Origin: Armatimonadota bacterium
Lineage (GTDB): Bacteria; Armatimonadota; UBA10988
Length of the DNA: 45,072 nucleotides
Assembly (NCBI GenBank): GCA_016183835.1
Contig: JACPDV010000418.1
Location: 1-45,072 of the forward strand
Reading direction: 5' to 3'
In this document: positions 2,218-27,893 of the stretch, one piece after another
Layout: each line of letters starts with the position of its first letter
Position numbering within the stretch: position 1 is the stretch's first letter
Made by a program: the position numbers and the translations under genes
Notes under the pieces: model-generated
Databases searched by the model: none
Told to the model about the DNA's origin: nothing
What the model saw: the letters and a program-made list of their open reading frames with translations, nothing else

Positions 2218-5180
2218 ACCGGCGCCCCCGCTGCCCACGGTGTCCCGCGGCGCGTCTCCTGGCGGCGCTCCTGGCCGCCGGGCTCGCCGGCCCGGCCGCG
2301 GCGCAGCCGCTGGTCAGGGTGGACGGCGTGGTCGCCCGGAGCGCGCCCGCCGGCAGCCGGCCGGGCTCGCGCGCGGGCACGCGGGTCGAGCTGCTCGCGC
2401 TCCACGGGTCCGCCACGGCGACGGCGCTCACCGATGCCCACGGCGCGTTCCATTTCGAGGCCGTGGCCCCGGGCGACTACCAACTGGAGGCCTCCGGCCC
2501 CGGCGCCGAGGGCGCGCTACGCTTCATCACGGTCGCCCCGGACGGCGACTACACCTGCCGGGTGGTGCTCGCCTCGCACTCGGAAGCGCTCCTTCTGACC
2601 GTCTTCTGGAGCGCTCTGGCCCTGCTGATCGCCGTCGCCGCGTGCGCCACGATCCTGCTCTACGGATTGTCGCGGCGCCACAGCGAGACCTCGGCGCCGC
2701 GCTCGGTGACGGTGGCGGTGGGGCTGTGGGCGGCGGCGTTCGCGCTCTATGCCGTGCTCGCGCCCGACATGCAGCCGCTGCTGCTCGAAGTGGCGGCGCC
2801 GCTCAGCTCGCTCTTGGCGGCGCTGGTGGGCGCCTGCGTGGTGCTGGTGATGGTCGAGCTGCGGCTGCCGCCGCTGGCGGCGGCGCTGGGCTGCCTCTCC
2901 GGGCTGCTGCTGGCGGTGGCCAGCCGCGCCGCGCTGCCGCCCGGCACGCCGATGTGGCTGGGCATCGGTGTGGGCTTGCTGTTCTGGACCACGGCGGCGG
3001 GCACGCTGATCGCGGTGCCGCTGAAGCGCAAGAGCTTCGTCGTGCTGGCCGCCATCCTGGTCGCGATGGTGGATGCCTGGAGCGTGACCTGCGGCCCGAC
3101 CGGGGCCCTGGTGCAGAGCCACGCGCCGGCGGCCGTCCGGCTGGCATCCCTGGGCGTGCTGCCCTGGCCGGTGCTCGGCTCCGACCTGGTGAACGGGGTG
3201 ATCGGATCGGGCGACTTCCTCTTCCTGGCCTGGTTCCTGGCGGCGGCGCAGCGGTTCGACATGGGTGTCGTGCGCAACTTCTGGGCGCTCCTGGCGGCGC
3301 TGAGCACCGGCATCATCCTGGCCCACGTGATGCAGCACACGGGCGTGGTGGCGGTGGGGCTGCCGGCGCTGCCGTTCCTCTGCGTGTTCTTTCTGGCGGC
3401 CAACGCCGGGCAGTTCGAGCTGCTGCCGCGCGAGCGGAAGCAGATTGCCGGCTGCGCCGCGGGCGTCGGCCTGGTCCTGGCGGGCCTGAGCTGGTGGACT
3501 CTGACGCGGCAGCCGGTGGAGCAGGTGGATGTGCGGCTCGACGCCCCTGCGGGCCGGGCCCGGGCGGCGCGGCTGTGGGACCCGGAGGCGCCGGCGGTGG
3601 CTCCGCTGGGGCCGCCCGATGCACACGGCGTGCGGAGTGCCGGCTGCACCGCCGATGTGGATGGGAGGCCGTGCCCGGTGACGGGGTTCCTGGCGGCGCC
3701 CTCCGGCGCGCGGGCGGCGGTGGTGGAGCTGGTGCCGCCCGACAGCTATGCCGCAGCGGCGGCGGGCTGGTGGGCGGCGCGGGGCAAAGCCTGCCTGGCG
3801 ATTGCGGGGCCCGCCGCCGGCCGGGAGCCGTACGACGTGTTCCCCCGTGTGCACGGCTCGTCGCTCTACGCGGCGGGTGCGGCGGCGCTCGCCGGGATGC
3901 AGGTCCTGCGCGGGCAGGCCGGCCTGGTGCCGGTGGCGCTGGTGGGCACCGGCTGGGGCGGCGTGGCGGCGCTCGATCTGGCCGCCGATTGTCCGGACGT
4001 GGCGGCGGTGGTGGCGGCGGGCGCCGGCGACCCGGCCGAGGGCGACGGCGCCGTGGCGCGCGGGCTGGCAGCAGAGTCGGCGGCCACTCGCGAGCGCTGG
4101 CTGGCGCGTTACGGTCCTGCGGGCCGTGCGGCCGGCTTGCAGCGGCCGGTCCTGCTGGTCGCCGCCGCCAACGATCCGGACGCCACCCTGCCATCGGTGG
4201 TCGCCTTGCGCCGGGCACTGGACGGGGGCGGGACGCGGCTGGTGATCCTGCCCAACGCCGACCGCACGGAGCCATCCGGCCGGCCGGCGGCGGCGCAGTG
4301 GCTCGATCAAGCGCTGCGCGGCGCGGCTGGCGCGATCCCGGAGCCGGGGCTCGAGGCGGCCGCCGACGGCGCCCGGCTGCGGCTCACCGCCACCGGCTGC
4401 AGCGCGGCCAACACGGCCTCGGCCACGTTCTACCTGTCTTGCTTCCCCGAGCCGCGCGGCGGCTGGGCGGGCCGCTGGTGGAGCGCGCTCCCGGGCCGCG
4501 TGGAGAGCGGGCGCTGGACGGCGCTGGCGGAGCTGGCCGGGAGCCTGGACCGCATTGCCGCCTTCGTCGAGGTGCGCGGGCGCGACGGGGCGCGGGTCTG
4601 CTCCCTGCCGCTCGTGGCCGGCGCCGCCGACCTTGGTTTGCAGCCCACGGCGGCGGTCTGGCCGAACCCGGTGATCGCCGCCTTCGAGCAGGGCGATGAG
4701 GGCTGGCGGGGCGGGGTGCCCGGCGCCGCCGCGCCGCGCGGCGGGGCGCTCGAGGTGAGCGTGCCGCCGGACCGAGGTGGTGTCCGGCTCACCACCAACC
4801 GCGTGGGCGCGCTCCCCGAGCTGGGTGGCCAGGCCGCCACGCTGGACTTGACGCTGCGTGCGGACGATCGGATCCGCATCGAGGCGTGGATCGTCGAACG
4901 CTTCGGGACTGTCGTAGAACGGCGCTTCGAGGCGCAGGGCGAAGTGTCTGCGGGAGCGCGCCAGACCGTGCGACTGCGGCTCGATCAGTTTCACATGGCC
5001 GACCGCTCCGCCCGGTTGGTCTGGCAGGCCGTGGACACCCTTGAGCTGGGCCTGACCAGGGCCGGCGCCGAGTACGTCGTCGGACTGGAGCCCGGCAGCC
5101 CCGGTCCCAAGTTGCGGCTCGAGCGGATCGCCCTGGCCGGCCCCGGCTACGGCGCGGTGCGGGCGGTGGAGACGAGATGA
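2214..5180 (+). CDS. Multidomain membrane protein: signal peptide, CarboxypepD_reg-like domain, presenilin/SPP-like GxGD polytopic core, degenerate alpha/beta-hydrolase-like domain, C-terminal beta-rich domain
   Basis: ATG 2214 overlaps the upstream stop (ATGA). There is a Sec signal (LLAALLAAGLAGPAAA/QP) and a CarboxypepD_reg-like motif (TDAHGAFHFEAVAPGDYQLEA). About 10 hydrophobic helices carry VAMVDAWSV (D at 3072-3074), VIGSGDFLF (D at 3213-3215) and GLPALPF (3363-3371). These are followed by VALVGTGWGGVAAL ... LLVAAANDPD ... LPNADR. The 1059-2213 part of the track ORF is an R/G/P-rich out-of-frame shadow of the upstream gene. Confidence 0.8.
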   Translation: MNRRPRCPRCPAARLLAALLAAGLAGPAAAQPLVRVDGVVARSAPAGSRPGSRAGTRVELLALHGSATATALTDAHGAFHFEAVAPGDYQLEASGPGAEGALRFITVAPDGDYTCRVVLASHSEALLLTVFWSALALLIAVAACATILLYGLSRRHSETSAPRSVTVAVGLWAAAFALYAVLAPDMQPLLLEVAAPLSSLLAALVGACVVLVMVELRLPPLAAALGCLSGLLLAVASRAALPPGTPMWLGIGVGLLFWTTAAGTLIAVPLKRKSFVVLAAILVAMVDAWSVTCGPTGALVQSHAPAAVRLASLGVLPWPVLGSDLVNGVIGSGDFLFLAWFLAAAQRFDMGVVRNFWALLAALSTGIILAHVMQHTGVVAVGLPALPFLCVFFLAANAGQFELLPRERKQIAGCAAGVGLVLAGLSWWTLTRQPVEQVDVRLDAPAGRARAARLWDPEAPAVAPLGPPDAHGVRSAGCTADVDGRPCPVTGFLAAPSGARAAVVELVPPDSYAAAAAGWWAARGKACLAIAGPAAGREPYDVFPRVHGSSLYAAGAAALAGMQVLRGQAGLVPVALVGTGWGGVAALDLAADCPDVAAVVAAGAGDPAEGDGAVARGLAAESAATRERWLARYGPAGRAAGLQRPVLLVAAANDPDATLPSVVALRRALDGGGTRLVILPNADRTEPSGRPAAAQWLDQALRGAAGAIPEPGLEAAADGARLRLTATGCSAANTASATFYLSCFPEPRGGWAGRWWSALPGRVESGRWTALAELAGSLDRIAAFVEVRGRDGARVCSLPLVAGAADLGLQPTAAVWPNPVIAAFEQGDEGWRGGVPGAAAPRGGALEVSVPPDRGGVRLTTNRVGALPELGGQAATLDLTLRADDRIRIEAWIVERFGTVVERRFEAQGEVSAGARQTVRLRLDQFHMADRSARLVWQAVDTLELGLTRAGAEYVVGLEPGSPGPKLRLERIALAGPGYGAVRAVETR

Positions 5181-6451
5181 GCATCCGGCCGCGGTGGTTT
5201 CTCCTGGCCCTCCCGGCGCTGGCCGCCCTGGCCGTGGGCGATGCGCCGCGTGAGCCTCTGACCATCGTTGTCTGTGGCTTGACGCAGGACTACCTGGAGG
5301 CCTGCGGCTGCGGCGGGCAGACCGCCGGCGGCCTGGCCCGGCGGGTGGGAGTGATCAAGGAGCTGCGCGCCGAGATGCCCGGCCTGGTGCTGATCGACGC
5401 CGGCGACCTGGGCGTCAAGGACCAGACCCTCGCCGTGATCGCCCGCAGTCTGGCCGCGGCGGGGGTCGATGCCGTGGGCATGGCGGGCGGCGACCTGGGC
5501 CGCTACGCCACCCTCGCGGCGGCGGCCAGGCTGCACGCCCTCCCCTTCACCAGCCTCGCCACCCCCGCCCCGCCCGTGCCGGGCGTGGCCGCGCCGCCCG
5601 GCTCGGTGACGATCGAGCGCTCGAGCGGGTGGCGCGTGGGCGTGGTGTCGCTGGCCCACAGCCCCGACTCCGTCAGCACGATGGCGGCCCGTTGTGCCGC
5701 GGAGCTGAAGCGGCTCAAGGCGGCGGGCTGCCAGGTCACCGTCCTCATCTCGCACCTTGGCGATGACTCCATCGACCGGCTGATGGCCACGCTTCAGCCC
5801 CGGCCGGACCTGATCCTGTACGCCACCAGCCAGAACTTCCCCGGCATGCCGGAGGAGCGGGGCGGCTGCTGGTGGGTGCCGATCTCACACCGCGGCCGAT
5901 CGGTGGGCGTGATCAGCGTCAGCGCCGGGGCGGACGGGCTCGACATCAGCGTGGCACAGAGCCTCCTCGCCCGCGGACCCATCGACCCGGTGGTGCAGGG
6001 CTGGGTGGATGGCTACTACCAGACGCTGCGGGCCGGACAGGTGGAGCAGACGGGGGAGCGCCCGGCCGCCAGCTACCCCGCGCCGAGCGAGTGCGAGAAG
6101 TGCCACGCCGCGTCGGTGGCGGCCTGGCGGAAGCACCCCCACGCCCACGCCGTGGAGACGCTCGAGGAACGCGGGCGGGACGTGGCGGCGTGCCTCGTGT
6201 GCCATGCCGAGTCGCTCCGGCGCGACGGACAGCGCCCGCCGCAGAAGGGCGACCGCGGCGTGGAGTGCGCCACCTGCCACCAGGGCCTGGCCGAGCACCT
6301 GAAGGACGCGACGCGGCATCCCACGAGCGCGGCGGAGAAGGACTGCGTGGTCTGCCACAACGCCGAGAACAGCGCCCACTTCACCTTCGCGACGTATCGT
6401 GGTAGCGTAGTGAAGGCCTGCCGCGGCGGCGGTGGAGGAGACGCGAAGTGA
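5177..6451 (+). CDS. Secreted tetra-haem c-type cytochrome with a degenerate 5'-nucleotidase/metallophosphatase-like N-domain
   Basis: ATG 5177 overlaps the upstream stop (ATGA) and is followed by a signal peptide (FLLALPALAALAVG). There are four CxxCH motifs: CEKCH 6092-6106, CLVCH 6191-6205, CATCH 6266-6280 and CVVCH 6344-6358. The N-terminal part (GGLARRVGVIKELRAEMPGLVLIDAGD) resembles the 5'-nucleotidase/SoxB-type fold but lacks the DxH/GNHE metal ligands. Confidence 0.8.
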   Translation: MSIRPRWFLLALPALAALAVGDAPREPLTIVVCGLTQDYLEACGCGGQTAGGLARRVGVIKELRAEMPGLVLIDAGDLGVKDQTLAVIARSLAAAGVDAVGMAGGDLGRYATLAAAARLHALPFTSLATPAPPVPGVAAPPGSVTIERSSGWRVGVVSLAHSPDSVSTMAARCAAELKRLKAAGCQVTVLISHLGDDSIDRLMATLQPRPDLILYATSQNFPGMPEERGGCWWVPISHRGRSVGVISVSAGADGLDISVAQSLLARGPIDPVVQGWVDGYYQTLRAGQVEQTGERPAASYPAPSECEKCHAASVAAWRKHPHAHAVETLEERGRDVAACLVCHAESLRRDGQRPPQKGDRGVECATCHQGLAEHLKDATRHPTSAAEKDCVVCHNAENSAHFTFATYRGSVVKACRGGGGGDAK

Positions 6452-6651
6452 AACGACTGCGCAAGGTCCTGACCTGCCTGCTGCTGGCCCTGCCGCTGCT
6501 CTGCTCGGCCGCGGGCTGCAAGAAGAGCGACAAGGGCTACGACGAGATCGGCGCGCCGGCGGCGGACGTCAACGCCATCCGCCAGGAGTCGCGGGAGCGC
6601 AAGGCGCGCGGCGAGAAGCCCGTCGCGCCCCCAGCGGACGCTCCGAAGTAG
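6448..6651 (+). CDS. Small lipoprotein (67 aa)
   Basis: GTG 6448 overlaps the upstream stop (GTGA). MKRLRKVLTCLLLALPLLCSAAGC is a lipoprotein signal with a lipobox (AAG-C). The tail is rich in charged K/E/R/P residues. Confidence 0.6.
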   Translation: MKRLRKVLTCLLLALPLLCSAAGCKKSDKGYDEIGAPAADVNAIRQESRERKARGEKPVAPPADAPK

Positions 6652-6749
6652 CTCGCCCGCCGCGCCTCGACGCCTGCGCCGGCTGCGGCTGCCCTGAACA
6701 TCGACGCCGCCGGGCGCGTGTGATAGGCTACCGCCAGGAGTCTGAGGCG

Positions 6750-7610
6750 ATGCCGCAAGTCGAGCCGTTGGCATTGGGCGTGATGATGGGTCTCCACGGC
6801 GACCCGCTCGAGTCGTTCAAGAAGCTCCGGGACCTGGGCTTCTCCACCTGCCAGCTCGGCGGACCGCCGGAGAGCTATGTCAGCGGGCCCGACGCCGAGC
6901 GGCTCACCGACCAGTTCCGCGAGGCGCTCGCCGCCACGGGTGTCACCGTCACCTCGGTCTTCATCATGTACAGCGGCCACGTGTGGGACCTGGTGAAGGG
7001 CCCCAACACCATCGGCCTGGTGCCCGCCGACAAGCGCGGCGCGCGGGTGGTGCAGGCGGTGCGGGTGAGCAACTGGGCGCGGAGCGCCGGGATCGACGCG
7101 GTCACCTCGCACATCGGGTTCATCCCCGAAGATCCCGACGACCCGAACTTCCCGCCCTTCGTCGAGACGATGCAAGCGCTGGTGGACTACTTCATCGACA
7201 ACGGGCAGACCTTCGCCTTCGAGACCGGGCAGGAAACCGCCGCCACGCTGGTGCGCACCATCCAGGCCATCGACCGGCACCCCCACGTCGGGATCAACCT
7301 GGACCCGGCCAACCTGCTCCTGTACGGCAAGAACCGGCCGATGGAAGTGGTGGACCTGGTGGCGCCGTACGTCTTCAACACCCACTGCAAGGACGGGCAT
7401 CTGCCCGAGCCGGGCGGCAAGCTGGGCCACGAGGTGGCCCTCGGCGAGGGCGATGTGCGCATACGTGAGCTGATCCCGGCGTTGTACGAGCGCGGCTATC
7501 GCGGCCCGCTGACCATCGAGCGCGAGATCAGCGGCGAGAAGCAGACGCAGGACATCCTGCGGGCCAAGGCGCTGTTGGAGGAGATCCGCGGCAAGCTGCT
7601 GGGCCGCTGA
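6750..7610 (+). CDS. Sugar phosphate isomerase/epimerase (xylose-isomerase-like TIM barrel)
   Basis: ATG 6750 has AGGAG at 6736-6740. Motifs HIGFIPED, FAFETGQE, GINLDPANLLLYG and TIEREI are typical of the AP_endonuc_2/xylose-isomerase-like TIM-barrel family. The track ORF start at 6432 overlaps the two upstream genes and is rejected. Confidence 0.8.
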   Translation: MPQVEPLALGVMMGLHGDPLESFKKLRDLGFSTCQLGGPPESYVSGPDAERLTDQFREALAATGVTVTSVFIMYSGHVWDLVKGPNTIGLVPADKRGARVVQAVRVSNWARSAGIDAVTSHIGFIPEDPDDPNFPPFVETMQALVDYFIDNGQTFAFETGQETAATLVRTIQAIDRHPHVGINLDPANLLLYGKNRPMEVVDLVAPYVFNTHCKDGHLPEPGGKLGHEVALGEGDVRIRELIPALYERGYRGPLTIEREISGEKQTQDILRAKALLEEIRGKLLGR

Positions 7611-7771: not shown

Positions 7772-8836
7772 GTGGCGAACCTGACGAGTGAGTCCGGCAT
7801 CATCAAGACGGCCTGCCATGCCCGCGCCGGCCTGATCGGCAACCCGTCGGACGGGTTCTACGGTAAGACCATCGCCGCGATCGTGCGCAACTGGCGCGCC
7901 ACGGTGCAGATCTGGGCCAGCCCGGAGCTGGTCATTCAGCCCAACCGCACCCACGACCCGCAGCTCTTCGACAGCCTCGGCGAGCTGTTCGTCACCGCCC
8001 AGCGCGAGGGCTACTACGGCGGGCTGCGGCTGCTCTATGCCACCTGCAAGCGGTTCTACGAGGAGACCCAGACGCGTCGGATCCTCCTCCCCGCCGGCAA
8101 CTTCACCGTGCGCTACGAGACCGACATCCCGCGCGGCGTGGGCCTGGCCGGGTCGAGCGCCATCATCACCGCCACCTTCCGCGCCCTGATGGAGTTCTAC
8201 GGTGTGCCCGAGGACGCCTTCGGCAAGCCGGTGCTGCCCAACCTGGTGCGCAGCGTGGAGACCGAGGAGCTGGGCCTCACCGCCGGCCTGCAGGACCGTG
8301 TGATCCAGACCTACGGCGGCTGCGTCTACATGGACTTCGACCGCGAGCGGATGCAGCGCGACGGCCACGGGCTGTACGTGCCGCTCGACCCGATCCAGCT
8401 ACCGCCGCTCTACATCGCCTACATCAGCAACCCGAGCGAGAGCAGCAGCATCCACAGCCCCATCCGCGTGCGCTGGGAGCGCGGCGATCCCGAGGTGGTC
8501 GCCGCTATGCTGCAGTTCGCCTCCTACGCCGAGCAATTCCGCCAGGCCCTGGACGCGGGCGACACCGACGAGCTGGGCGCCCTGATGAACGCCAACTTCG
8601 ACCTCCGCCGCCAGCTCTACGGCGACGAGGTGATCGGCCGCGACTGCCTCCGCATCATCCGCATCGCCCGCGAGTGCGGCGCCAGCTCCACCTTCGCCGG
8701 GAGCGGCGGGGCCATCATCGGCATCTATCGCGACGACCGCCACTTCGACGAGCTGAGCGCCGCCTTCGCCGCCGCCGGCTACCCGGTCGTCAAGGCCCGC
8801 GTGGGCGGCGCCGGCCACGGTGACGGATGCGACTGA
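7772..8836 (+). CDS. GHMP-family sugar-1-kinase, glucuronokinase-like
   Basis: GTG 7772 has GAAGGAG at 7757-7763. The GHMP motif is GVGLAGSSAIITA. ARAGLIGNPSDGFYGKTI, GYYGGLRLL, LQDRVIQTYGG..YMDF, LPPLYIAY and NFDLRRQL..DE line up with what I remember of plant glucuronokinase (GlcAK). Confidence 0.75.
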   Translation: MANLTSESGIIKTACHARAGLIGNPSDGFYGKTIAAIVRNWRATVQIWASPELVIQPNRTHDPQLFDSLGELFVTAQREGYYGGLRLLYATCKRFYEETQTRRILLPAGNFTVRYETDIPRGVGLAGSSAIITATFRALMEFYGVPEDAFGKPVLPNLVRSVETEELGLTAGLQDRVIQTYGGCVYMDFDRERMQRDGHGLYVPLDPIQLPPLYIAYISNPSESSSIHSPIRVRWERGDPEVVAAMLQFASYAEQFRQALDAGDTDELGALMNANFDLRRQLYGDEVIGRDCLRIIRIARECGASSTFAGSGGAIIGIYRDDRHFDELSAAFAAAGYPVVKARVGGAGHGDGCD

Positions 8837-9840
8837 TCGATCGCTACCTGCTCGAGGAGATCGCCACCCCGTTCGTGGTCGGGGTGATGGTGATCCTGGT
8901 CATGCTCCTCGGCGACCAGCTCTACCAGCTCCTCATGCTGGTCATCACCCGCGGCGTCTCCGTGGTGACGGTCAGCCGGCTCCTGCTCTTCAAACTGCCT
9001 AGCATGACGGTGGTGGCCTTGCCCCTGGCCGTGATCCTGGCCACGTCGCTCGGCCTCGGCCGGCTGGTGCGCGAGGGCGAGTGGACCAGCCTGCGCCTCG
9101 GCGGCGCCGGCCTGCGCCGGCTGCTTCGGCCGATTCTCGTCTTCGGCCTGGCCATCACCGCGCTGAGCTGGGTGGTGGGCGAATCCATCGCCCCGCCGGC
9201 CCTGGCGCAGTTCGAGCGGATCCAGACCGAGCTGGCGGTGGCCGACCCGACCATCGTGGTCCAGCCGCAGCGCTGGTTCAAGCCGGGCTCGTCGCGCGCT
9301 TGGTTCTACGTCAACGAGCTCGACCCGCGCACGGGGATCATGCGCAACGTGGTGATCTTCAGCGACGAGCAGAGCGACTACCCGACCGCGCTGTTCGCCC
9401 GCGAGGCGCGGTTCGACCAGGAGAAGTTCTACCTCACCGACGTGGCGCGCCACGTCTGGCGGCCGGACGGCACGCTCCAGCGCGAGGCGACGACGCAGCG
9501 GGTGATCCTCAACGTGGCCCGCCTCTCGCCCCGGCTGGCCGGCTCGGCGCTGAGCACCGACGAGATGTCGGCGTCGCAGATCCGCGAGATGATCGAGCGC
9601 TCCGGGCAGCAGGGCGTCGCGCGGCCCGACCAGGTCCTCGACCTGCACCGCCGTTACGCCGCGCCGGCGGCGTGCCTGGTCCTCGCCCTGCTCTGCGTGC
9701 CGCTCAATCTGCTCACTGCGCGGCGCGGGAGCTTCGCCGGCCTGCGCCGGCTGCTTCGGCCGATTCTCATCTTCGGCCTGGCCATCACCGCGCTGAGCTG
9801 GGTGGTGGGCGAATCCATCGCCCCGCCGCGGAGAACGCCG
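8827..9840 (+). CDS. LptF/LptG (YjgP/YjgQ)-family permease, apparently 3'-truncated and reading in frame into the next gene
   Basis: ATG 8827 overlaps the kinase gene by 10 nt. The MRLIDRYLLEEI start is typical of the family. It is followed by three TM helices, a ~170-aa periplasmic domain and TM4 (RRYAAPAACLVLALLCVPLNLL..RRGSF). The sequence then jumps into a duplicate of the TM3-coding segment (9735-9828). There is no stop codon before 12516, and the expected last TM helices are missing. Confidence 0.65.
9105..9198 (+). repeat. 94-bp direct repeat, copy 1 (codes for LptF/G TM3)
   Basis: It is identical to 9735-9828 except at 9139 (g, versus a at 9769). The offset is exactly 630 bp, which keeps the frame. 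Confidence 0.95.
9735..9828 (+). repeat. 94-bp direct repeat, copy 2 (junction between the permease and heparinase-like genes)
   Basis: It matches 9105-9198 at 93 of 94 positions. It ends 1 nt before the GGAG and 12 nt before the ATG of the heparinase-like lipoprotein gene. Confidence 0.95.
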
Positions 9841-12516
9841 ATGCCCGCCCGTCTCCTCCTCCCCCTCTTCCTCGCCGGCTGCGCCAACGCCACCCTCACC
9901 ACCCACCCGCGGGTCTACTTCGACTCCGCCGGCCTCCAACGCCTCCGCGCGCTCAGCCGGCAGACCGACGCCACCGTCTACGGCTTCGCGCCCGCCGACG
10001 GATGGGCGGCCATCCTCGCCCGGGCCCGCGCCCTCGCCAACGGACCGGCCTACCACTACGAAGTTCAGATCCCGGCCGTCAACAACGAGCACGCCGGCTG
10101 GAAGTGGAGCTACACCCTCTCCGCCACGCCGCCGCCGCGGCACGACGAGTCCCCTCACTACCCGCCCTGGACCGCCCTCTTCCAGGAGCGCGAGGACAGC
10201 ATCTCCACCCGGCTCAAGCTCTTCTCCCTCGCGTACCTGATCACCGGCGAGGACCTGTTCTACCAGAAGGCCCGCGAGATTGCCTTCGACCTGGCCCAGT
10301 GGCCGCAGTGGACCGACCCCAGCTACGGCGGGCTCCCGGCCTGCCTCGACACCGGCCACTGCACCCAGACGATGGGCCTCTTCTACGACTGGTGCTACGA
10401 CAAGCTGGCCCCCGCCGAGCGCGAGCAGTTGCGCGGCGCCATCGTCGACAAGGGCATCCTGGCCCTCACCGCCACCCTGCCGAAGACCGAAGCCCACTGG
10501 AACGGCTGGGGGGTGTTCACCACCGGGCTCGGCGTCGCCGCGCTGGCGCTGGTGGGCGAAGAGGACCGCGCGCCCGGCTGGGTGCAGACTTCCATCGACA
10601 ACGTGAAGACGTACGACGACCTGCAGGGCAGCGACGGCGGCAGCTTCGAGGGGCCGATGTACGGCACCTACGCCGCGGACAGTCTCGCCGCGCTCCTCTT
10701 CGCCCTCGACAGCTCGCAAACCGCCCACGGCCTGAAGGGGCACCCCTTCCTGGCCGGCCTGCCGCGCTTCGCCGTCAACGGCCTCTCGCCCCACGTCAAA
10801 GGCATCGCCACGTTCGGCGACGGCGGTTTCACCGCCGCCTACCCTCGCACCCTGGCCATGCTCGCCGCCGGCGGCGACGAGGCGGCGCGCTACTACCTTC
10901 TGGCTGCCGGCCTGCTGGGCGGCCTGAACGGCATCGACGACTTCCTCTTCAACGGCCCGCTGCTCGCGGCCAAGGAGCTGCCCGGGCCGCCCGCATGGCT
11001 GGGCAGCGACGCCTTCACCGACGTCGGCTACGCGTTCCTCCGCGGCGGCGACGACGATCCGTACCTGGCCTTCAAGTGCGGCCCGGCCACGGTGGCCGTG
11101 GGGCACAACCACTACGACGCCAACAGCTTCCAGATCACCGCCTCCGGCGGCGTGGCGGCGGCCGATCCGGGCTACCGGAGCTACTTCAACCCGCCCATGC
11201 GGCGCTACACCACCAGCACGTTCGGCCACAACACGGTGGTGCTCGACCTCGACAACGCCTACCTCCAGAACCAGGCCGACAGCGTGGCCGGGCACGACCA
11301 GTTCAACCTGGCCGGCGGCCGGCTGATCGAGGCCTTCACCGCGCCCGGCATCGGCTTCCTCACCGGCGAGGCGGCGGCGACCTACAACTCCGCCAACGCC
11401 AAGGTGCTGGACCGCTTCGCCCGCCGCATCGTCGCCATCCCGCCGCACGGCTTCGTGATTCGCGACGAGCTGGCCGCGCCGGCGCCGCACACCTTCAGTT
11501 GGCTGCTCCACGGGCCGAACGGCGCCGAAGTGTCGGCGGCGGCGAACGCCGCCACCCTCGAGCAGGCGCGGGTGGTCCTCCAGGCGGGCGTGTGGTCGCC
11601 GGGCGGTGTGACCTGGCGGTCGGGCACCTACCCGGGCGCGGAGAGCTACGGTCCGTACGCCGCGGCGACCACGGCGCGGCCCGCCACGTCCGCCGCCTTC
11701 ACCGCGGCACTGGTGCCGCGGGCCAACCCGAAGCTGCTGATGAACCCCGGCTTCGAGCGCGATCTGGCCGGCTGGGCCATCCGCTCCGGCGAGGACGGGC
11801 CGCACCACAGGGTGTCCCCCGAGCAGCCGCACTCCGGCACGAAGTGCGGCCGGATCGAGAAGTCGGGCTACTTCTACACCAGCCACTTCGTCCTGCCGCC
11901 CGGCACGAAGTACACGGCCCGGGTCTGGCTGCGGACCGAGGGCGCGGCCAAGGGCGGCGAGATGGTGGTCTACTACTGGCGCGGCGGCACCGCGTTCGCC
12001 AGTGAGCGCACGCCGCCGACGGTGTCCGAGGCCAAGTGGACGCAGCTCACCGTGACCGGCACGGTGCCTGCCGACTGCCAGGAGGTGTGCGTGGCGCTGA
12101 ACTATTTTGACACCGGCGCGGGCTGCTGGGATGACCTGGAGTTCACCCCGGACGCGGCGCCGCAGGCGATGACGCCCGCCCGGATCGAGTCGCTCGGGGC
12201 CGACGCGGCCGACGGCGTCGGCGTGGCGGCGGACGGCTGGACGCACTGGGTGGTGTTCAGGTCTACTGGGCCGGTGGAGACCGACGGGCGGATGGCGGTG
12301 GTGTCGGTCGCGCCGGACGGTCAGGTGGCGCGGGCGCTGCTCGACGGCGGGACGCGGCTGACGTTCGAGGGCAAGCCGGTCCTGCGCAGCACGCAGCGCT
12401 GCACGGCGTCGTTCTGGCGAGGCGCGAAGGGCGTCGAGTCGGCGGTGCAGCTCGATCTGGCGCCGCATGCCGCGGCCATTCGGTGGGAGGCGGTGGGGCT
12501 CGTGGTGGGCGGATGA
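9841..12516 (+). CDS. Heparinase II/III-like (polysaccharide lyase-like) lipoprotein with C-terminal CBM4_9-like domain
   Basis: The internal ATG 9841 has GGAG at 9830-9833. MPARLLLPLFLAGC is a lipobox signal. The heparinase II/III signature is GHNHYDANSFQITASG..DPGY...FGHNTVVLD. The C-terminus (NPGFERDLAGW ... HSG ... WTQLTV) resembles a CBM4_9/galactose-binding-like module. It is in frame with 8827, so the track gives one 1229-aa ORF. Confidence 0.8.
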   Translation: MPARLLLPLFLAGCANATLTTHPRVYFDSAGLQRLRALSRQTDATVYGFAPADGWAAILARARALANGPAYHYEVQIPAVNNEHAGWKWSYTLSATPPPRHDESPHYPPWTALFQEREDSISTRLKLFSLAYLITGEDLFYQKAREIAFDLAQWPQWTDPSYGGLPACLDTGHCTQTMGLFYDWCYDKLAPAEREQLRGAIVDKGILALTATLPKTEAHWNGWGVFTTGLGVAALALVGEEDRAPGWVQTSIDNVKTYDDLQGSDGGSFEGPMYGTYAADSLAALLFALDSSQTAHGLKGHPFLAGLPRFAVNGLSPHVKGIATFGDGGFTAAYPRTLAMLAAGGDEAARYYLLAAGLLGGLNGIDDFLFNGPLLAAKELPGPPAWLGSDAFTDVGYAFLRGGDDDPYLAFKCGPATVAVGHNHYDANSFQITASGGVAAADPGYRSYFNPPMRRYTTSTFGHNTVVLDLDNAYLQNQADSVAGHDQFNLAGGRLIEAFTAPGIGFLTGEAAATYNSANAKVLDRFARRIVAIPPHGFVIRDELAAPAPHTFSWLLHGPNGAEVSAAANAATLEQARVVLQAGVWSPGGVTWRSGTYPGAESYGPYAAATTARPATSAAFTAALVPRANPKLLMNPGFERDLAGWAIRSGEDGPHHRVSPEQPHSGTKCGRIEKSGYFYTSHFVLPPGTKYTARVWLRTEGAAKGGEMVVYYWRGGTAFASERTPPTVSEAKWTQLTVTGTVPADCQEVCVALNYFDTGAGCWDDLEFTPDAAPQAMTPARIESLGADAADGVGVAADGWTHWVVFRSTGPVETDGRMAVVSVAPDGQVARALLDGGTRLTFEGKPVLRSTQRCTASFWRGAKGVESAVQLDLAPHAAAIRWEAVGLVVGG

Positions 12517-12550
12517 GTGCCTCCACGGTGAGCGCGGCCGGATCCGACGG

Positions 12551-12559
12551 TGCTAGAAT
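12551..12559 (+). promoter_or_regulatory. Extended -10 promoter element for the low-GC cassette
   Basis: The element is TGcTAGAAT (TG at 12551-12552, TAGAAT at 12554-12559), 40 nt upstream of ATG 12599. It sits in an otherwise GC-rich 82-bp spacer. No good -35 is present. Confidence 0.4.
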
Positions 12560-12598
12560 GGGCTGGGCTGCCACAGGGGTGACGGCACGGAGCGGGCC

Positions 12599-12844
12599 AT
12601 GCGGATGGAACGGGACGAGGTGCTGGCCGAGAACGCGGCGGGCGTGTTCGGGGAGTACATGAACACGTTCACGGCCCAGGGGATCCGCGTTGACATGTTC
12701 AGGCGCAACGGCGACTTGATCGCCTACGTGAGCCCGGTGGGGAGGCGAAGCGCGGCTGCGGCAATGGACCGGCACGCGCCCAGGATAAAGAAGTACGCCG
12801 AGCAGGAGCACCTTCAGTTGCGCGTGGTCTTCAGCTCGAGGTGA
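12599..12844 (+). CDS. Hypothetical 81-aa protein, first gene of the low-GC cassette
   Basis: ATG 12599 has GGAG at 12589-12592 with a 6-nt spacer, downstream of an extended -10. I recognise no motif. Codon usage is visibly less GC3-biased than in the flanking genes. Confidence 0.5.
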   Translation: MRMERDEVLAENAAGVFGEYMNTFTAQGIRVDMFRRNGDLIAYVSPVGRRSAAAAMDRHAPRIKKYAEQEHLQLRVVFSSR

Positions 12845-12847
12845 CGG

Positions 12848-13690
12848 ATGGCCCGTGTCCGTGTGTCTTTCACCATCCGGCGTACACTGTCGCTCGCGGC
12901 AGGGCTGTACGCCAACGTGGAGCTGGAGTGCTCGCCTGACGACGGGACCGCCACGCTGGCACTGTGGTTCGAGCCCCGGAGCGAAGGCGCCTTCGAGGAG
13001 CAGGAGAGCCAGTCGGAGCGCCTGTTGGTGGAGGCCAACCGCTTCCTGCGGTGGTACCGGTTCGTGACGGGTGAGGCTTCGGTGGTGGAGCTGACGGACG
13101 CCCAAGCCAGTCCGTTCCGGTTCGTGTCCGAGCCGGGCGGCGCTCCCTGGGGCGGGAACGACGGCATCCGGTACGCCGTGCCGGAGCACGCTCCAGCCGC
13201 CAGGACCAAGCCGCTGGCTCAAGTGGAGTCGGAGATCCGGGCCGGTCTGCAATCGGCCGTCGGGCCTCCCGTCTGGCATCTGCTAGTCCTCGACGCCGAC
13301 GTCGCCTTCGCGGAGGGCCGTAATCGCGAGGCCGTCATCTTCTGCTGGAGCGCCATCGAGAGCTGCTTCAACACCACCTTCCGGGATCTCGTTCAGACCA
13401 ACCTCACAGATCTCAACCGCAACGACCGGGACAGCCTCGCGTCCGGCACGGGCCGCGACATCAGCCTCACCAACCGCATGACCGCAGGGCTCCAACTGGC
13501 TGCCGGACAGTCGCTTCACCGGCTGTTGGGTTCCGACTGGGAGCGGCTGCGCGCCAGCTACCGCGTCCGCAACCGGGTGGTCCACGAGGGCGGCGAGCCA
13601 TCGCCGGATGAGGCCGAGCGGTGCCTCGCGGTGACGCGGCGCGTCCTCCGCGAGGTCGAGGCGCTCCGGCCGGCAGCGGACGGGGAGTGA
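12848..13690 (+). CDS. Hypothetical 280-aa protein with a C-terminal HEPN-like domain (Rx4-6H)
   Basis: ATG 12848 lies 3 nt after the upstream stop, with GAGG at 12838-12841. The C-terminal ~150 aa are helical and end in YRVRNRVVHEG (13562-13585), which matches the HEPN Rx4-6H motif. The N-terminal ~125 aa are unassigned. GC is lower than in the neighbouring genes. Confidence 0.65.
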   Translation: MARVRVSFTIRRTLSLAAGLYANVELECSPDDGTATLALWFEPRSEGAFEEQESQSERLLVEANRFLRWYRFVTGEASVVELTDAQASPFRFVSEPGGAPWGGNDGIRYAVPEHAPAARTKPLAQVESEIRAGLQSAVGPPVWHLLVLDADVAFAEGRNREAVIFCWSAIESCFNTTFRDLVQTNLTDLNRNDRDSLASGTGRDISLTNRMTAGLQLAAGQSLHRLLGSDWERLRASYRVRNRVVHEGGEPSPDEAERCLAVTRRVLREVEALRPAADGE

Positions 13691-13710
13691 GCGCCGGGAG
13701 GAGTGCCCCC

Positions 13711-15600
13711 GTGTTCGACCTGTGGCGCATCCACGAACGCCGCGGCGAGCTGATCGCCCGCGCGCAGCACCCGCGCTTCGCCGCCTGGTGGGAGCAGCTC
13801 CTCGCCGACGCGCACCAGCGGGCAGGCGAGACCGTCGAGGTACACGCCGTCGAGCCCGAGGCGCGGGCGAACGAGCTGCTGGCCCTGGCCGGGCGAGCCG
13901 AGGGCCTCGCCTTCGCCGCTGCGCTCACGGGCGACGAGAGCCTTGCCCGCGCCGCCGCCGCGCACCTGGCACCCGTGATCGCCGACGCGTCGCCCTGGAT
14001 GGGTCCCGGCCACCATCGGCACTACCCGGAGCTGAATGCCGACCTGCTCCTTGCCGAGCGCTGCAAGCGCGTCGCCGCAACGCTCTCCTGGGCGGGGCCG
14101 TGGCTGGCTGAGGCGGAGCGCGCCGAGGCCGTTGCCGCGCTGCACGGCCGCGGCGGCGCCGTGATCTGGGAGGACACCCTCCGCGGCGCCTGGTGGAGCA
14201 ACGGCCACAACAGCAACTGGACCGCCGTGCTTAACTCCGGCCTGGCCTTCGCGGCGCTCGGCGTGGCCGAGGAGCATCCCCGGGACTCGGCGGCCTGGCT
14301 GGCGCGAGCCGCCGAGGTGGCCCGGACCATGCTCGACCTCGCCGCCGAGGAGGGCGCCGGGGTCGAGGGGCTGAGCTACTGGACCTACTGCTTCGGCAGC
14401 CTGCTGGACATCGCCGAAGCCCTCGCCGGAGCGGGCGACACCTCGCTCCTCGAGCATCCGTGCTGGCGCAAGGCGGCGGAGTTCCCGCTCTACCTGTCGC
14501 TGCCCGACCTCTCGGGCTGGGCCAACTTCGGCGACTGTGGCGACCACGGGCTCGGCGCGAGCTGGCTCTTTTTCGGCCTGGCCAGCCGCGCCGGCGACCG
14601 GCGCGCGCAGTGGCTGGCGAACCGGATCGCCGGCGATCCGCCGCGGGTCACGTTCCGCGACCTGGTCTTCGCCGACCCCGACCTGCCCGAGGAGCCGCCG
14701 GGCGACCTGCCGCCGTGCCGCCTGTTCAACACCGTCCACCTGGCCGTGCTGCGCTCCGACTGGTCGCCGCAGGCGACGCAGCTCGTGCTCAAAGGCGGCT
14801 CCAACGCCTGGTCGCACTGCCACCTCGACCTCAACAGCTTCATCCTCACCGCCGGCGGCGAGCGGCTGGCGGTGGACCCCGGGCCGTGGCCCTACACCGA
14901 GAGCTACTGGACCAGCGTGGAGCCGCCGCAGTCCACCGCCTGGCACAACACCCTCACCGTGGACGGCGGCGACCAGCGGCAGCCGCCACGCTACCGGATG
15001 AGCTACGACCTGGAGGAGAGCGGCAACGCCTGGTGCCGGCTGAGTGGGTTTGTCGACGGGTCGGACGCGGCGGCGGTGGAGGGCGACGCCACGAGCGCGT
15101 ACGCCGACACGCTGGAGAGCTTCGTCCGCCGGGTGCGCTACCTGAAGCCCGACGTGTTCGTGATCCACGACCGAGTGCGGGTGCGCGAGGTGCGGACGCA
15201 ACGGCACCTGCAGTGGCTCTTGCACGCCTCACGGCCGCTCGACGAGGTGTCCGGCGGCGTGGTGGTGCGGGGTGAGCAGGTGGACCTGTGGGTGCGCCCA
15301 TTGCTGCCCGACGGTTGGGCGGCGAAGCTGCTGGCGGACCGCGTGTCGCCCGGCCGCCCTCCGGTGCACGCCTGGGCGCTGCGGCCGACGTGGTACCACC
15401 TCTGGAACGTCTCGCCGAGCCGCTCGCCCTACCCGCACTGGGACAAGCGTGGGAGCGGACGGCTGTACGGCCCGGAGTACGAGTTCCTGGTGGTCATCGA
15501 GGTAGCACCCGCCGGCGCGGGGCCCCGGTGGACGGCGGAACTAGGGGAGGGAGTGGTGATCCTGCGATCGGGCGGCGAAGTCCGGCATTGCCGCCGGTAG
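13711..15600 (+). CDS. Heparinase II/III-like protein (second paralogue)
   Basis: GTG 13711 has GGGAGGAG at 13696-13703. The motif is SHCHLDLNSFILTAGGERLAVDPG...TAWHNTLTVDGGDQ. The track start at 13621 would overlap the preceding gene. Confidence 0.8.
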   Translation: MFDLWRIHERRGELIARAQHPRFAAWWEQLLADAHQRAGETVEVHAVEPEARANELLALAGRAEGLAFAAALTGDESLARAAAAHLAPVIADASPWMGPGHHRHYPELNADLLLAERCKRVAATLSWAGPWLAEAERAEAVAALHGRGGAVIWEDTLRGAWWSNGHNSNWTAVLNSGLAFAALGVAEEHPRDSAAWLARAAEVARTMLDLAAEEGAGVEGLSYWTYCFGSLLDIAEALAGAGDTSLLEHPCWRKAAEFPLYLSLPDLSGWANFGDCGDHGLGASWLFFGLASRAGDRRAQWLANRIAGDPPRVTFRDLVFADPDLPEEPPGDLPPCRLFNTVHLAVLRSDWSPQATQLVLKGGSNAWSHCHLDLNSFILTAGGERLAVDPGPWPYTESYWTSVEPPQSTAWHNTLTVDGGDQRQPPRYRMSYDLEESGNAWCRLSGFVDGSDAAAVEGDATSAYADTLESFVRRVRYLKPDVFVIHDRVRVREVRTQRHLQWLLHASRPLDEVSGGVVVRGEQVDLWVRPLLPDGWAAKLLADRVSPGRPPVHAWALRPTWYHLWNVSPSRSPYPHWDKRGSGRLYGPEYEFLVVIEVAPAGAGPRWTAELGEGVVILRSGGEVRHCRR

Positions 15601-26498: not shown

Positions 26499-27776
26499 CT
26501 AGAGCGCGCCGTTGACGGCCTCGTCCTGCCGGCAGCGGGCCTTGAACCGGCGGTAGACGAGATGGGCAAAGTCGTCGAGCCGGCTGCCCGCCGCGCGGGC
26601 GTCGGCCTCGCGGACCTCCACCAGGTCCACCGGCTGCATCCGATTGAGCGACAGCACCACGTAGTGGTCGCCGGTCTTGTCGAGCTGGAGGTCGAACGCG
26701 CTGAGCCCACGGTTGAGGGCGCGGTTGATGGCCAGAGCGCAGTCGGCGGCGCGGTCCTCGGGGGTGGGTGAGTCGCCCGCGTCCGCCAGCTCCAGCAGCG
26801 TCTCGTCGCCGAGGAGCAGCTCCACCCGCGACGTGCCGTCGGACAGCGGCGTGACGCGCAGCCCGGCGGTGATCCCCCGCGTCACGGCGCGCCGGTCCAC
26901 GGGCAGCTTAAGCGTGTCGCGGATCTGCTTCTCCAGGTACTCAGCGCGCTCATCGCTCCACGGGTGGTCCTGGAAGGCGCCCAGCTCCGCCGGGTTCGGC
27001 CGCTGCCGGTAGAGCCGCTGGAGCCGCTCGAAGGTGGTCACCATGCCCACCGGGTTGTACCCGGCGCGGTAGGCGTAGTAGCAGCCGGCTTTGTCGGCCT
27101 GCTCCTCCTCATCAATGGTGTGACCGTTCTGCAAGGCCAGGTAGACGTACTGCACGATGGCCGCGGCGTGCATCACGTTGACGCCCATGAAGCTGGCGGC
27201 GAGCATGGCGAGGATCTGCTGCTGCTGGTAGCGCTGCATCCGGCGCACCTGCTGACGCAGGTGGTGGTGCGTGTTGTGCGCGCACTCATGCGCCACGACG
27301 CCGGCGATCTCGTCGTCACTCTGGCAGAAATCGAGGATCCCCCGCGTCAAGTAGATGTGACCGCCCCAGGTGGAGAAGGCGTTGATGTCGTCGCTGTCGA
27401 CCAGGTGGAAGGTGAACTGGAAGCTGGGCTCGCCGCCCTCGATGGGCACCTGCTTGGGCCCCACCGCGGCGGCGGCGGTGATCACCCGCCAGCCGATCGC
27501 CTCTACCTGCTTCTGCCGGTCCGGGTCGCGGTAAGGCTTCAGCTCTTTGGCGAAGAAGTCGGCGACCTCTTTGGCGTACTTGCTCTCCTCGGCCTCGCTG
27601 TACCTGGACTGGCCCAGGTCCACCTTCAACTCGATGTCGGGCAGTTTGGCGGTGGGCTTGAGCGCCTGCGGCGTGATGTCTTCGGCCGGGGCGAGCGAGA
27701 GCGCCAGGCAGGCCAGAGCCGCGAGGGCCCAGCCACCCTTCGTCAACCGGGGGAGCCGATGATCGGCGCGACGCAC
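26499..27776 (-). CDS. M48-family Zn metalloprotease, membrane-anchored or secreted
   Basis: The HExxH motif is VAHECAHNTHHH, with the typical surrounding sequence (NAFSTWGGHIYLTRGIL). I favour the GTG start at 27776 (GGAG 6 nt upstream, then RRADHRLPRLTKGGWALAALACLALSLAPA). The track ORF extends to a TTG at 27842. Confidence 0.75.
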   Translation of the reverse strand: MRRADHRLPRLTKGGWALAALACLALSLAPAEDITPQALKPTAKLPDIELKVDLGQSRYSEAEESKYAKEVADFFAKELKPYRDPDRQKQVEAIGWRVITAAAAVGPKQVPIEGGEPSFQFTFHLVDSDDINAFSTWGGHIYLTRGILDFCQSDDEIAGVVAHECAHNTHHHLRQQVRRMQRYQQQQILAMLAASFMGVNVMHAAAIVQYVYLALQNGHTIDEEEQADKAGCYYAYRAGYNPVGMVTTFERLQRLYRQRPNPAELGAFQDHPWSDERAEYLEKQIRDTLKLPVDRRAVTRGITAGLRVTPLSDGTSRVELLLGDETLLELADAGDSPTPEDRAADCALAINRALNRGLSAFDLQLDKTGDHYVVLSLNRMQPVDLVEVREADARAAGSRLDDFAHLVYRRFKARCRQDEAVNGAL

Positions 27777-27855
27777 GGGACGCTCCGCACACCCCTCGGT
27801 GGGTGTGGTCTGCACTGTAGTAAAGACTCGGCGTCTTGGCAAGGGTTCCTGCCGG

Positions 27856-27885
27856 TTGACGCTCCGGCGGCACCGGCGCTACAAT
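27856..27885 (+). promoter_or_regulatory. Sigma70-like promoter directly abutting the PDZ-protein start codon (leaderless or near-leaderless)
   Basis: TTGACG (27856-27861), an 18-nt spacer, then TACAAT (27880-27885). ATG 27894 lies only 8 nt after the -10, and there is no SD. Confidence 0.4.
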
Positions 27886-27893
27886 CCCGCATC

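Follow-up and report, generated by a model that had tools for sequence, protein, structure and literature searches.

A compact pair of genes in a 45,072-bp contig of an Armatimonadetes metagenome-assembled genome (JACPDV010000418.1; the contig was analysed whole and is called the window here) is predicted to encode a HEPN-superfamily ribonuclease (RNase) of 280 amino acids (aa) and, immediately upstream of it, an 81-aa protein of no known family. HEPN RNases act as executioners in many toxin–antitoxin, abortive-infection and CRISPR-accessory systems. We propose, at a probability of roughly 0.55, that the pair is a HEPN endoribonuclease controlled by a dedicated, co-translated small partner in a toxin–antitoxin- or abortive-infection-like manner. 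HEPN toxin modules as such are known; what is new is a HEPN family that carries a conserved extra N-terminal module and is accompanied by a partner of unknown fold, none of which appeared in the libraries or literature that we searched. An initial annotation of this DNA had suggested that the architecture might be undescribed, a suggestion that held up: neither protein is represented in Pfam, NCBIfam, PADLOC or PHROGs, neither has a match beyond chance among PDB sequences, and literature searches found no description of this two-protein family.

The AlphaFold2 model of the 280-aa protein (predicted local distance difference test (pLDDT) score 79, predicted template modelling score 0.77) placed C-terminal helices at residues 123–135, 142–155, 159–185, 191–199, 207–219, 223–247 and 253–271, in agreement with the initial reading of this half of the protein as all-helical. 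Four of these helices (142–155, 159–185, 223–247 and 253–271) form an up-down bundle, with an insert made of helices 191–199 and 207–219 between core helices 2 and 3. HEPN domains are defined by an Rx4-6H motif at the end of the penultimate core helix, in which a polar residue is expected after the arginine, and by an acidic residue, likewise conserved, towards the N terminus of the domain, which frequently forms part of an Ex3[KR] element (PMC3710099). In the model, R241-N242-x3-H246 ends the penultimate helix (223–247) and is followed by a loop (248–252) and the last helix (253–271), a position that agrees with the definition; the RVRNRVVH sequence encoded at 13562–13585, originally picked out as an Rx4-6H signature from the letters alone, therefore sits where a HEPN motif should. 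R241, N242 and H246 were invariant in the 45 full-length members of the family and, once distant relatives were included, were retained in 113/113, 107/113 and 112/113 sequences, respectively, so that the conservation of R and H on which the HEPN assignment had been staked is nearly complete. Candidates for the second feature of the definition are D149 (106/121) and E161 (97/121); an E156-x3-R160 element is present as well, but E156 was found in only 37 of 122 sequences. A Foldseek search of the PDB with the model, which was in keeping with the suspected HEPN-like domain, returned HEPN proteins as all of its top matches (2hsb (AF_0298), 2q00 (SSO), 5fsh, 3o10, 1wol and 1o3u, with Thermus thermophilus Csm6 and the sacsin HEPN domain included), at target-normalised template modelling (TM) scores of 0.63–0.68 (2hsb 0.63; 2q00 0.66–0.68) and probabilities of up to 1.00. 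AbiV was a weak structural match at rank 48, and a Foldseek search against viral structures returned nothing.

Sequence comparison reached known HEPN models through distant relatives. A word-indexed search for relatives of the 280-aa protein retrieved four only, and an exhaustive profile search with its family retrieved 307 representatives at E<1e-3, 60 of them at E<1e-30. The family profile reached the distant relative P0120 at E=4.6e-10, and P0120 in turn matched the PADLOC Csx1/Csm6 model over its HEPN half (E=1.5e-7) and Pfam HEPN at E=4.6e-4 (20.8 bits, below the cut-off of 22); the family is therefore connected to the HEPN superfamily by transitive homology. Among the 45 members, sub-threshold Pfam matches were obtained to HEPN_RiboL-PSP in 6 (best 0.045) and to HEPN in 3. 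Searches of PDB sequences with the single protein, with the 45-member profile and with a profile that included the distant relatives gave chance matches only. A HEPN-superfamily RNase domain in the 280-aa protein, predicted from these comparisons and from the structural model, is well supported, and would belong to a family that lacks a curated model.

The 81-aa gene is a dedicated, co-inherited partner of the HEPN gene across phyla. A scan of 185,579 species genomes, one genome per species, with one peptide pattern yielded 41 loci, a lower bound, in Planctomycetota (Isosphaeraceae, Gemmataceae, Pirellulales, Phycisphaerales and Tepidisphaeraceae), Armatimonadota, Myxococcota (including the cultured Chondromyces apiculatus DSM 436), Terriglobia and Sericytochromatia. 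The Chondromyces locus is found at about 4.6–17.3 kb of NZ_ASRX01000014.1. In 38 of the 41, the next gene upstream is a same-strand homologue of the small gene; the exceptions are L027, which lies at the end of a contig, and the truncated remnants L038 and L040. Four close metagenomic relatives each have an 80–85-aa open reading frame (ORF) directly upstream (4/4). The gap between the small-gene stop and the large-gene start in 28 intact pairs has a median of 10 nt (range −4 to 49), with three pairs overlapping, and the pairwise identities of the small and large proteins correlate (r=0.80). No third gene is conserved across the loci.

Both ORFs of the cassette are real genes. They are found at the positions, on the strand and with the 3-nt spacing originally reported, and each start codon is preceded at 6 nt by the GGAG or GAGG ribosome-binding site that had been noted (Table 1). 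Spurious long frames do arise in high-GC DNA, and the window contains a mirror 1229-aa ORF on the minus strand as well as minus-strand ORFs over the cassette, but the idea that both genes are chance frames or annotation noise is refuted by the homologue data and its likelihood is practically nil. The two ORFs show an in-frame G+C content of 0.86–0.90 at third codon positions versus 0.44–0.51 at second positions, a signature that, together with homologous pairs in 40+ genomes, establishes them as genuine; each protein has hundreds of homologues with conserved motifs in five phyla, and both gave confident structure predictions.

The N-terminal part of the 280-aa protein was modelled as four to five strands, a conserved 27-residue helix (48–74) and a disordered stretch (101–117), so that its first description as a β-rich domain was right about the strands and overlooked the helix and the disordered segment. 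The module consists of a β-meander (2–41), the helix 48–74 bearing N64 and Y70-R71, and then an E81-L-T segment. N64 (105/107 sequences) and R71 (106/108) are conserved like catalytic residues, and the helix persists in distant relatives of 430–560 aa whose N termini otherwise differ, indicating that it is part of a conserved functional core and not an accessory element. This helix is not part of the published HEPN definition (PMC3710099). Residues 1–120 gave no match, in sequence or fold, to CARF, SAVED or any other known sensor domain (Pfam, PADLOC and Foldseek). Three distant relatives of 428–558 aa (L051 1733-4104, L052 703-3797 and L055 5001-6677) combine an NRxxxxYR helix with the HEPN module without the 80-aa partner, and one of them is translationally coupled to an uncharacterised 330-aa ORF; others of them adjoin a serine recombinase with an AAA_25 gene, or lie near an IS1595 transposase and a PIN gene. 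Relatives of this type look like a wider uncharacterised HEPN clade.

The small protein, modelled from a family alignment drawn from database proteins, was predicted to adopt a compact β-α-β-β-β-α-β domain (pLDDT 85.8) with no disordered tail. Its family comprises 329 clusters at 90% identity, none of them named, and G18, Y20, T23 and F34 are invariant. No nucleotidyltransferase fold or motif was found by sequence or structure. Foldseek matches of the model to GNAT fragments, AcrVA5 and the PscP switch domain were dismissed as noise (all E>=0.05). Because the small protein and the N-terminal module of the RNase both contain a three-strand meander, a long helix and a strand, we considered whether one might be a paralogue or mimic of the other, and rejected this at an hhalign probability of 0.1%. 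Two predicted proteins from the search for representatives, P0071 (297 aa) and P0109 (131 aa), combine N-terminal sequence of the small partner with a portion of the HEPN protein. Either they are artefacts of a frameshift or deletion, or the two genes have, in rare cases, fused naturally.

In the mechanism that we propose, the cassette would be a free-standing two-gene operon whose 280-aa product acts as a metal-independent HEPN endoribonuclease with a predicted active site of R241, N242 and H246, probably completed across a homodimer as in related enzymes. The HEPN domain would be fused to the family-specific N-terminal α/β module, with the N64/Y70/R71 helix in its conserved core. The 81-aa protein, presumably made from the same transcript, would most likely bind the RNase and hold it inactive, in the way of a type II-style antitoxin or an immunity subunit; when the partner is lost or displaced by stress or phage infection, the freed RNase would cut cellular or invader RNA and growth would stop. 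We infer RNase activity, the assignment of toxin and inhibitor, the trigger and any role in phage defence, and favour an inhibitor because the small gene comes first, the two genes are tightly coupled and the catalytic motif is conserved. Diverse neighbours, double copies, decayed copies, a cross-phylum similarity described below, the recombinase, transposase and PIN genes beside distant relatives and a mild codon atypicality also point to accessory, conflict-like behaviour.

Several results weigh against it. The 280-aa protein matched nothing at E<=1 in Pfam, NCBIfam or PADLOC, with no HEPN profile reached, and its best Foldseek E-value was only 0.03 (2hsb). Foldseek with the small-protein model gave no significant structural neighbour; no DNA-binding fold (helix-turn-helix, ribbon-helix-helix, AbrB or Phd) or known antitoxin fold was recognised in the small protein by sequence or structure, and acid/base charge complementarity between the 81-aa and 280-aa proteins was absent. 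Among 148 neighbouring proteins neither defence nor mobility genes were enriched, and no copies of the pair were found on plasmids, phages or viral contigs. Eight Isosphaeraceae loci share common neighbours, four Capsulimonadaceae/Armatimonadales loci (L021, L023, L031 and L046) are syntenic, with an M3 oligopeptidase called directly downstream of the pair, and sequence similarity mostly tracks taxonomy; synteny and taxonomic similarity fit a stably inherited cellular function or a domesticated toxin–antitoxin pair equally well. Disrupted large and small genes, finally, occur at about 11:3, the ratio expected from gene length alone, so that decay offers no evidence that the large gene in particular encodes a toxin.

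The folded, non-antitoxin-like partner, the stable synteny and the lack of a defence context led us to keep two other explanations alive. In one, the pair would be neither selfish nor defensive: the large protein would be a cellular RNase, stably inherited, that serves RNA processing, turnover or a stress response, and the small protein would be its regulatory or specificity subunit, a cofactor and not an inhibitor. We regard this as rather unlikely, although the conserved synteny, the taxonomic pattern and the absence of plasmid, phage or viral copies just described all agree with it, as does a well-folded small protein devoid of antitoxin hallmarks. The neighbourhoods are of the kind that it would predict: the 148 neighbouring proteins fall into 126 Pfam families of at most 4 members each, those listed being mostly housekeeping (among them DnaE, GroEL, AccA and 6PGD). 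A defence-system assignment, for which the initial annotation had looked to PADLOC, did not materialise either, as PADLOC-DB v2 matched neither protein and the pair does not reside in a defence island. A housekeeping function is harder to reconcile with the very patchy distribution (41 of 185,579 species genomes, again as a lower bound), with genomic positions that differ between lineages, with the presence of two copies each in two genomes, with one near-identical cross-phylum copy and with pseudogenised, truncated and insertion sequence (IS)-split copies.

One of these decayed copies lies on a Capsulimonadaceae chromosome (L023, OZ241338.1, 4608-6834). Here an insertion of about 1 kb interrupts the HEPN gene, leaving an N-terminal fragment at about 4876-5055 and the rest of the gene from about 6073 onwards, with the small gene undamaged; the inserted DNA contains a tract coding for heptapeptide repeats and, on the other strand, transposase-like ORFs. 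Other decayed copies are the two truncated remnants mentioned above (L038 and L040) and frameshifted genes in the Illumina assemblies L047 and L048. A preferential decay of the large gene was considered and set aside, since gene length or indel errors in long reads could equally account for the pattern. As to similarity across phyla, the large protein of a Terriglobia copy (L012) is 71–75% identical to those of three Tepidisphaeraceae copies (L016, L018 and L044) and as close to them as they are to one another, which reflects either cross-phylum transfer or a binning error.

The other explanation would make the pair a signal-gated HEPN effector of the Csm6/Csx1 type. A sensor, built from the N-terminal module, the small protein or both, would bind a ligand or a phage component and thereby activate the RNase. 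It is suggested by the match of distant relatives to the HEPN half of the Csx1/Csm6 model and the presence of T. thermophilus Csm6 among the top structural matches, by the N64/Y70/R71 helix, whose conservation equals that of the catalytic motif and extends to distant relatives with otherwise different N termini, and by the compact fold of the small protein, which is not a disordered antitoxin. We consider it distinctly unlikely, since no known sensor domain such as CARF or SAVED was detected, neither a cas gene nor a cyclase is found among the 25 most frequent Pfam families of the 148 neighbours, and the tight coupling of a small upstream gene to a large downstream gene is the classic antitoxin–toxin order (PMC3710099). 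A further reading, speculative and unlikely as it stands, would be a new form of HEPN gating, in which the N-terminal module and the 80-aa protein jointly serve as a sensor or lock unrelated to MNT, CARF, SAVED or the classical antitoxins, and the pair constitutes a hitherto unrecognised system of RNA degradation, triggered by stress or phage, in Planctomycetota, Armatimonadota and myxobacteria.

Compared with the HEPN superfamily at large (PMC3710099), the pair shares the all-helical domain, the Rx4H motif with an asparagine after the arginine at the end of the penultimate core helix and a two-gene cassette with the smaller gene first, and perhaps also conserved acidic residues upstream of the motif (D149 and E161); it departs from the superfamily in the family-specific α/β module preceding the domain, in a partner of no known family and in profile matches that stay below threshold. 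The type VII HepT/MntA (HEPN/MNT) system likewise couples a small upstream gene tightly to a HEPN RNase gene, and a HEPN dimer would be the expected toxin in both, but the partner here has 81 aa and no MNT fold, and the HEPN protein, at 280 aa, carries an additional N-terminal module and does not belong to DUF86. Since the partner lacks a nucleotidyltransferase fold, neutralisation by AMPylation is not expected. Csm6/Csx1 proteins (CARF-HEPN, type III CRISPR-Cas) represent the closest HEPN flavour by sequence, through the distant relatives, and resemble the 280-aa protein in structure and in their two-domain layout of a regulatory N terminus and a C-terminal HEPN domain; they differ in that the present family has no CARF domain, a separate small partner gene and no frequent cas neighbours.

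RnlA/RnlB and LsoA/LsoB are comparable in that a HEPN RNase is the toxin and its protein antitoxin is neither an enzyme nor built like a classical DNA-binding antitoxin, whereas their antitoxin gene lies downstream, their toxin has three domains (NTD, NRD and DBD) and neither sequence nor structure matched here. ApeA and AbiV share with the 280-aa protein an N-terminal non-HEPN module, a C-terminal HEPN domain and a proposed RNA cleavage, but no HEPN_Apea or Abi profile was matched, the upstream partner is obligatory in our family and the context is not that of a defence island. Type II toxin–antitoxin systems offer the same arrangement of a small gene immediately upstream in one operon, co-inherited with its partner (38/41, median gap 10 nt, r=0.80), and differ in the antitoxin, as the candidate here has neither a DNA-binding domain nor a labile disordered tail.

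The informative point about any HEPN RNase is how it is restrained, and in this family, with hundreds of members from poorly studied soil and freshwater phyla, the catalytic motif is canonical and neither the N-terminal module nor the partner looks like a known regulator. If the partner is an inhibitor or a sensor, the pair would represent a new control mechanism for HEPN enzymes and a candidate defence or addiction module in lineages in which almost none has been characterised; if the large protein is a housekeeping RNase instead, the gain would be only the annotation of a new protein family. The cultured carrier Chondromyces apiculatus DSM 436 makes the proposal testable.

Table 1. Coordinates of the cassette features in the window.
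Feature	Position	Strand	Basis and remarks
Candidate extended −10 element TGCTAGAAT	12551-12559	+	Upstream of the small gene; sequence present
GGAG ribosome-binding site	12589-12592	+	6 nt ahead of the small-gene ATG; read from the sequence
81-aa partner gene (HYU66_17515)	12599-12844	+	ORF; predicted compact α/β fold; proposed inhibitor or regulator of the HEPN protein
GAGG ribosome-binding site	12838-12841	+	Within the 3′ end of the small gene, 6 nt ahead of the large-gene ATG
280-aa two-domain protein gene (hypothetical protein HYU66_17520)	12848-13690	+	N-terminal α/β module and predicted C-terminal HEPN domain
N-terminal module, residues 1–95	12848-13132	+	AlphaFold2 secondary structure; conservation of N64 and R71
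Predicted HEPN-type all-helical domain, residues 123–271	13214-13660	+	AlphaFold2 helices, Foldseek, sub-threshold Pfam matches
Predicted RNase active-site motif R241-N242-R-V-V-H246 (Rx4H, polar residue after R)	13568-13585	+	Conservation and position

The placement of the GAGG site inside the small gene would be compatible with an operon and possible translational coupling. Of the promoter originally suggested, the extended −10 sequence is present as described, and a sigma-70 consensus scan of 12200–14000 found no paired −35/−10 site. A terminator-like hairpin at 12844-12862, a 7-bp stem followed by a T-rich tail, spans the junction of the two genes and is probably due to chance (0.4 expected in shuffled sequence).

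The base composition of the cassette deviates in the direction initially reported, only mildly so: its GC content is 0.689 versus a contig mean of 0.719 (standard deviation 0.025 in equal-sized windows), which corresponds to the 11.5th percentile, and 4 of its 21 lines of 60 nt have a GC content of 63% or less, compared with 9.5% contig-wide (Mann–Whitney p=0.03). The unusual codon usage also proved real, with A/T-ending codons at 13.6% versus 7.1% and codon adaptation indices (CAI) of 0.53 (z=−2.7) for the small gene and 0.59 (z=−1.9) for the large gene versus 0.72±0.07 in 21 reference genes; an index as low as that of the large gene is reached by only 3.4% of random windows of 280 codons. 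It is not peculiar to the cassette, however, as two further genes of the contig, 6432-7610 and 26964-29603, are equally atypical (CAI 0.58 and 0.53, A/T-ending codons 15–16%). The first of these encodes a xylose-isomerase-like TIM-barrel protein. The composition is compatible with foreign origin or with low expression and demonstrates neither. A recent acquisition of the cassette, in line with the horizontal transfer that the initial annotation proposed, is shown neither by this mild deviation nor by its surroundings, in which no direct or inverted repeats, tRNA, Rfam element or mobility genes were found. A metagenome scan with heparinase 2, the downstream neighbour, for loci with adjacent heparinase genes returned one weak locus.

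The contig surroundings of the cassette are devoted to glycan utilisation and are not a defence island. The genes on both sides carry Hepar_II_III_C (Pfam) and are distant paralogues of each other (30% identity over 373 aa, E=3e-19), as their description as heparinase paralogues had implied, and the wider context consists of co-directional glycan-utilisation genes (GH123-like, GFO/IDH/MocA, epimerase and MR/MLE). The 1229-aa ORF upstream of the cassette (8827-12516) is an LptF/LptG permease fused in frame to heparinase-like gene 1. The permease part covers positions 1–303 of the 353 in the Pfam profile, and a 94-nt direct repeat (9105-9198 and 9735-9828, 99% identical, 630 nt apart) stands in place of the permease C terminus and leads into a lipoprotein-type signal peptide, MPARLLLPLFLAGC, with an ATG at 9841 that is probably the true start of heparinase-like gene 1. 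Either the assembly is chimeric at this point, or a duplication has led to a genuine rearrangement that fused permease and heparinase.

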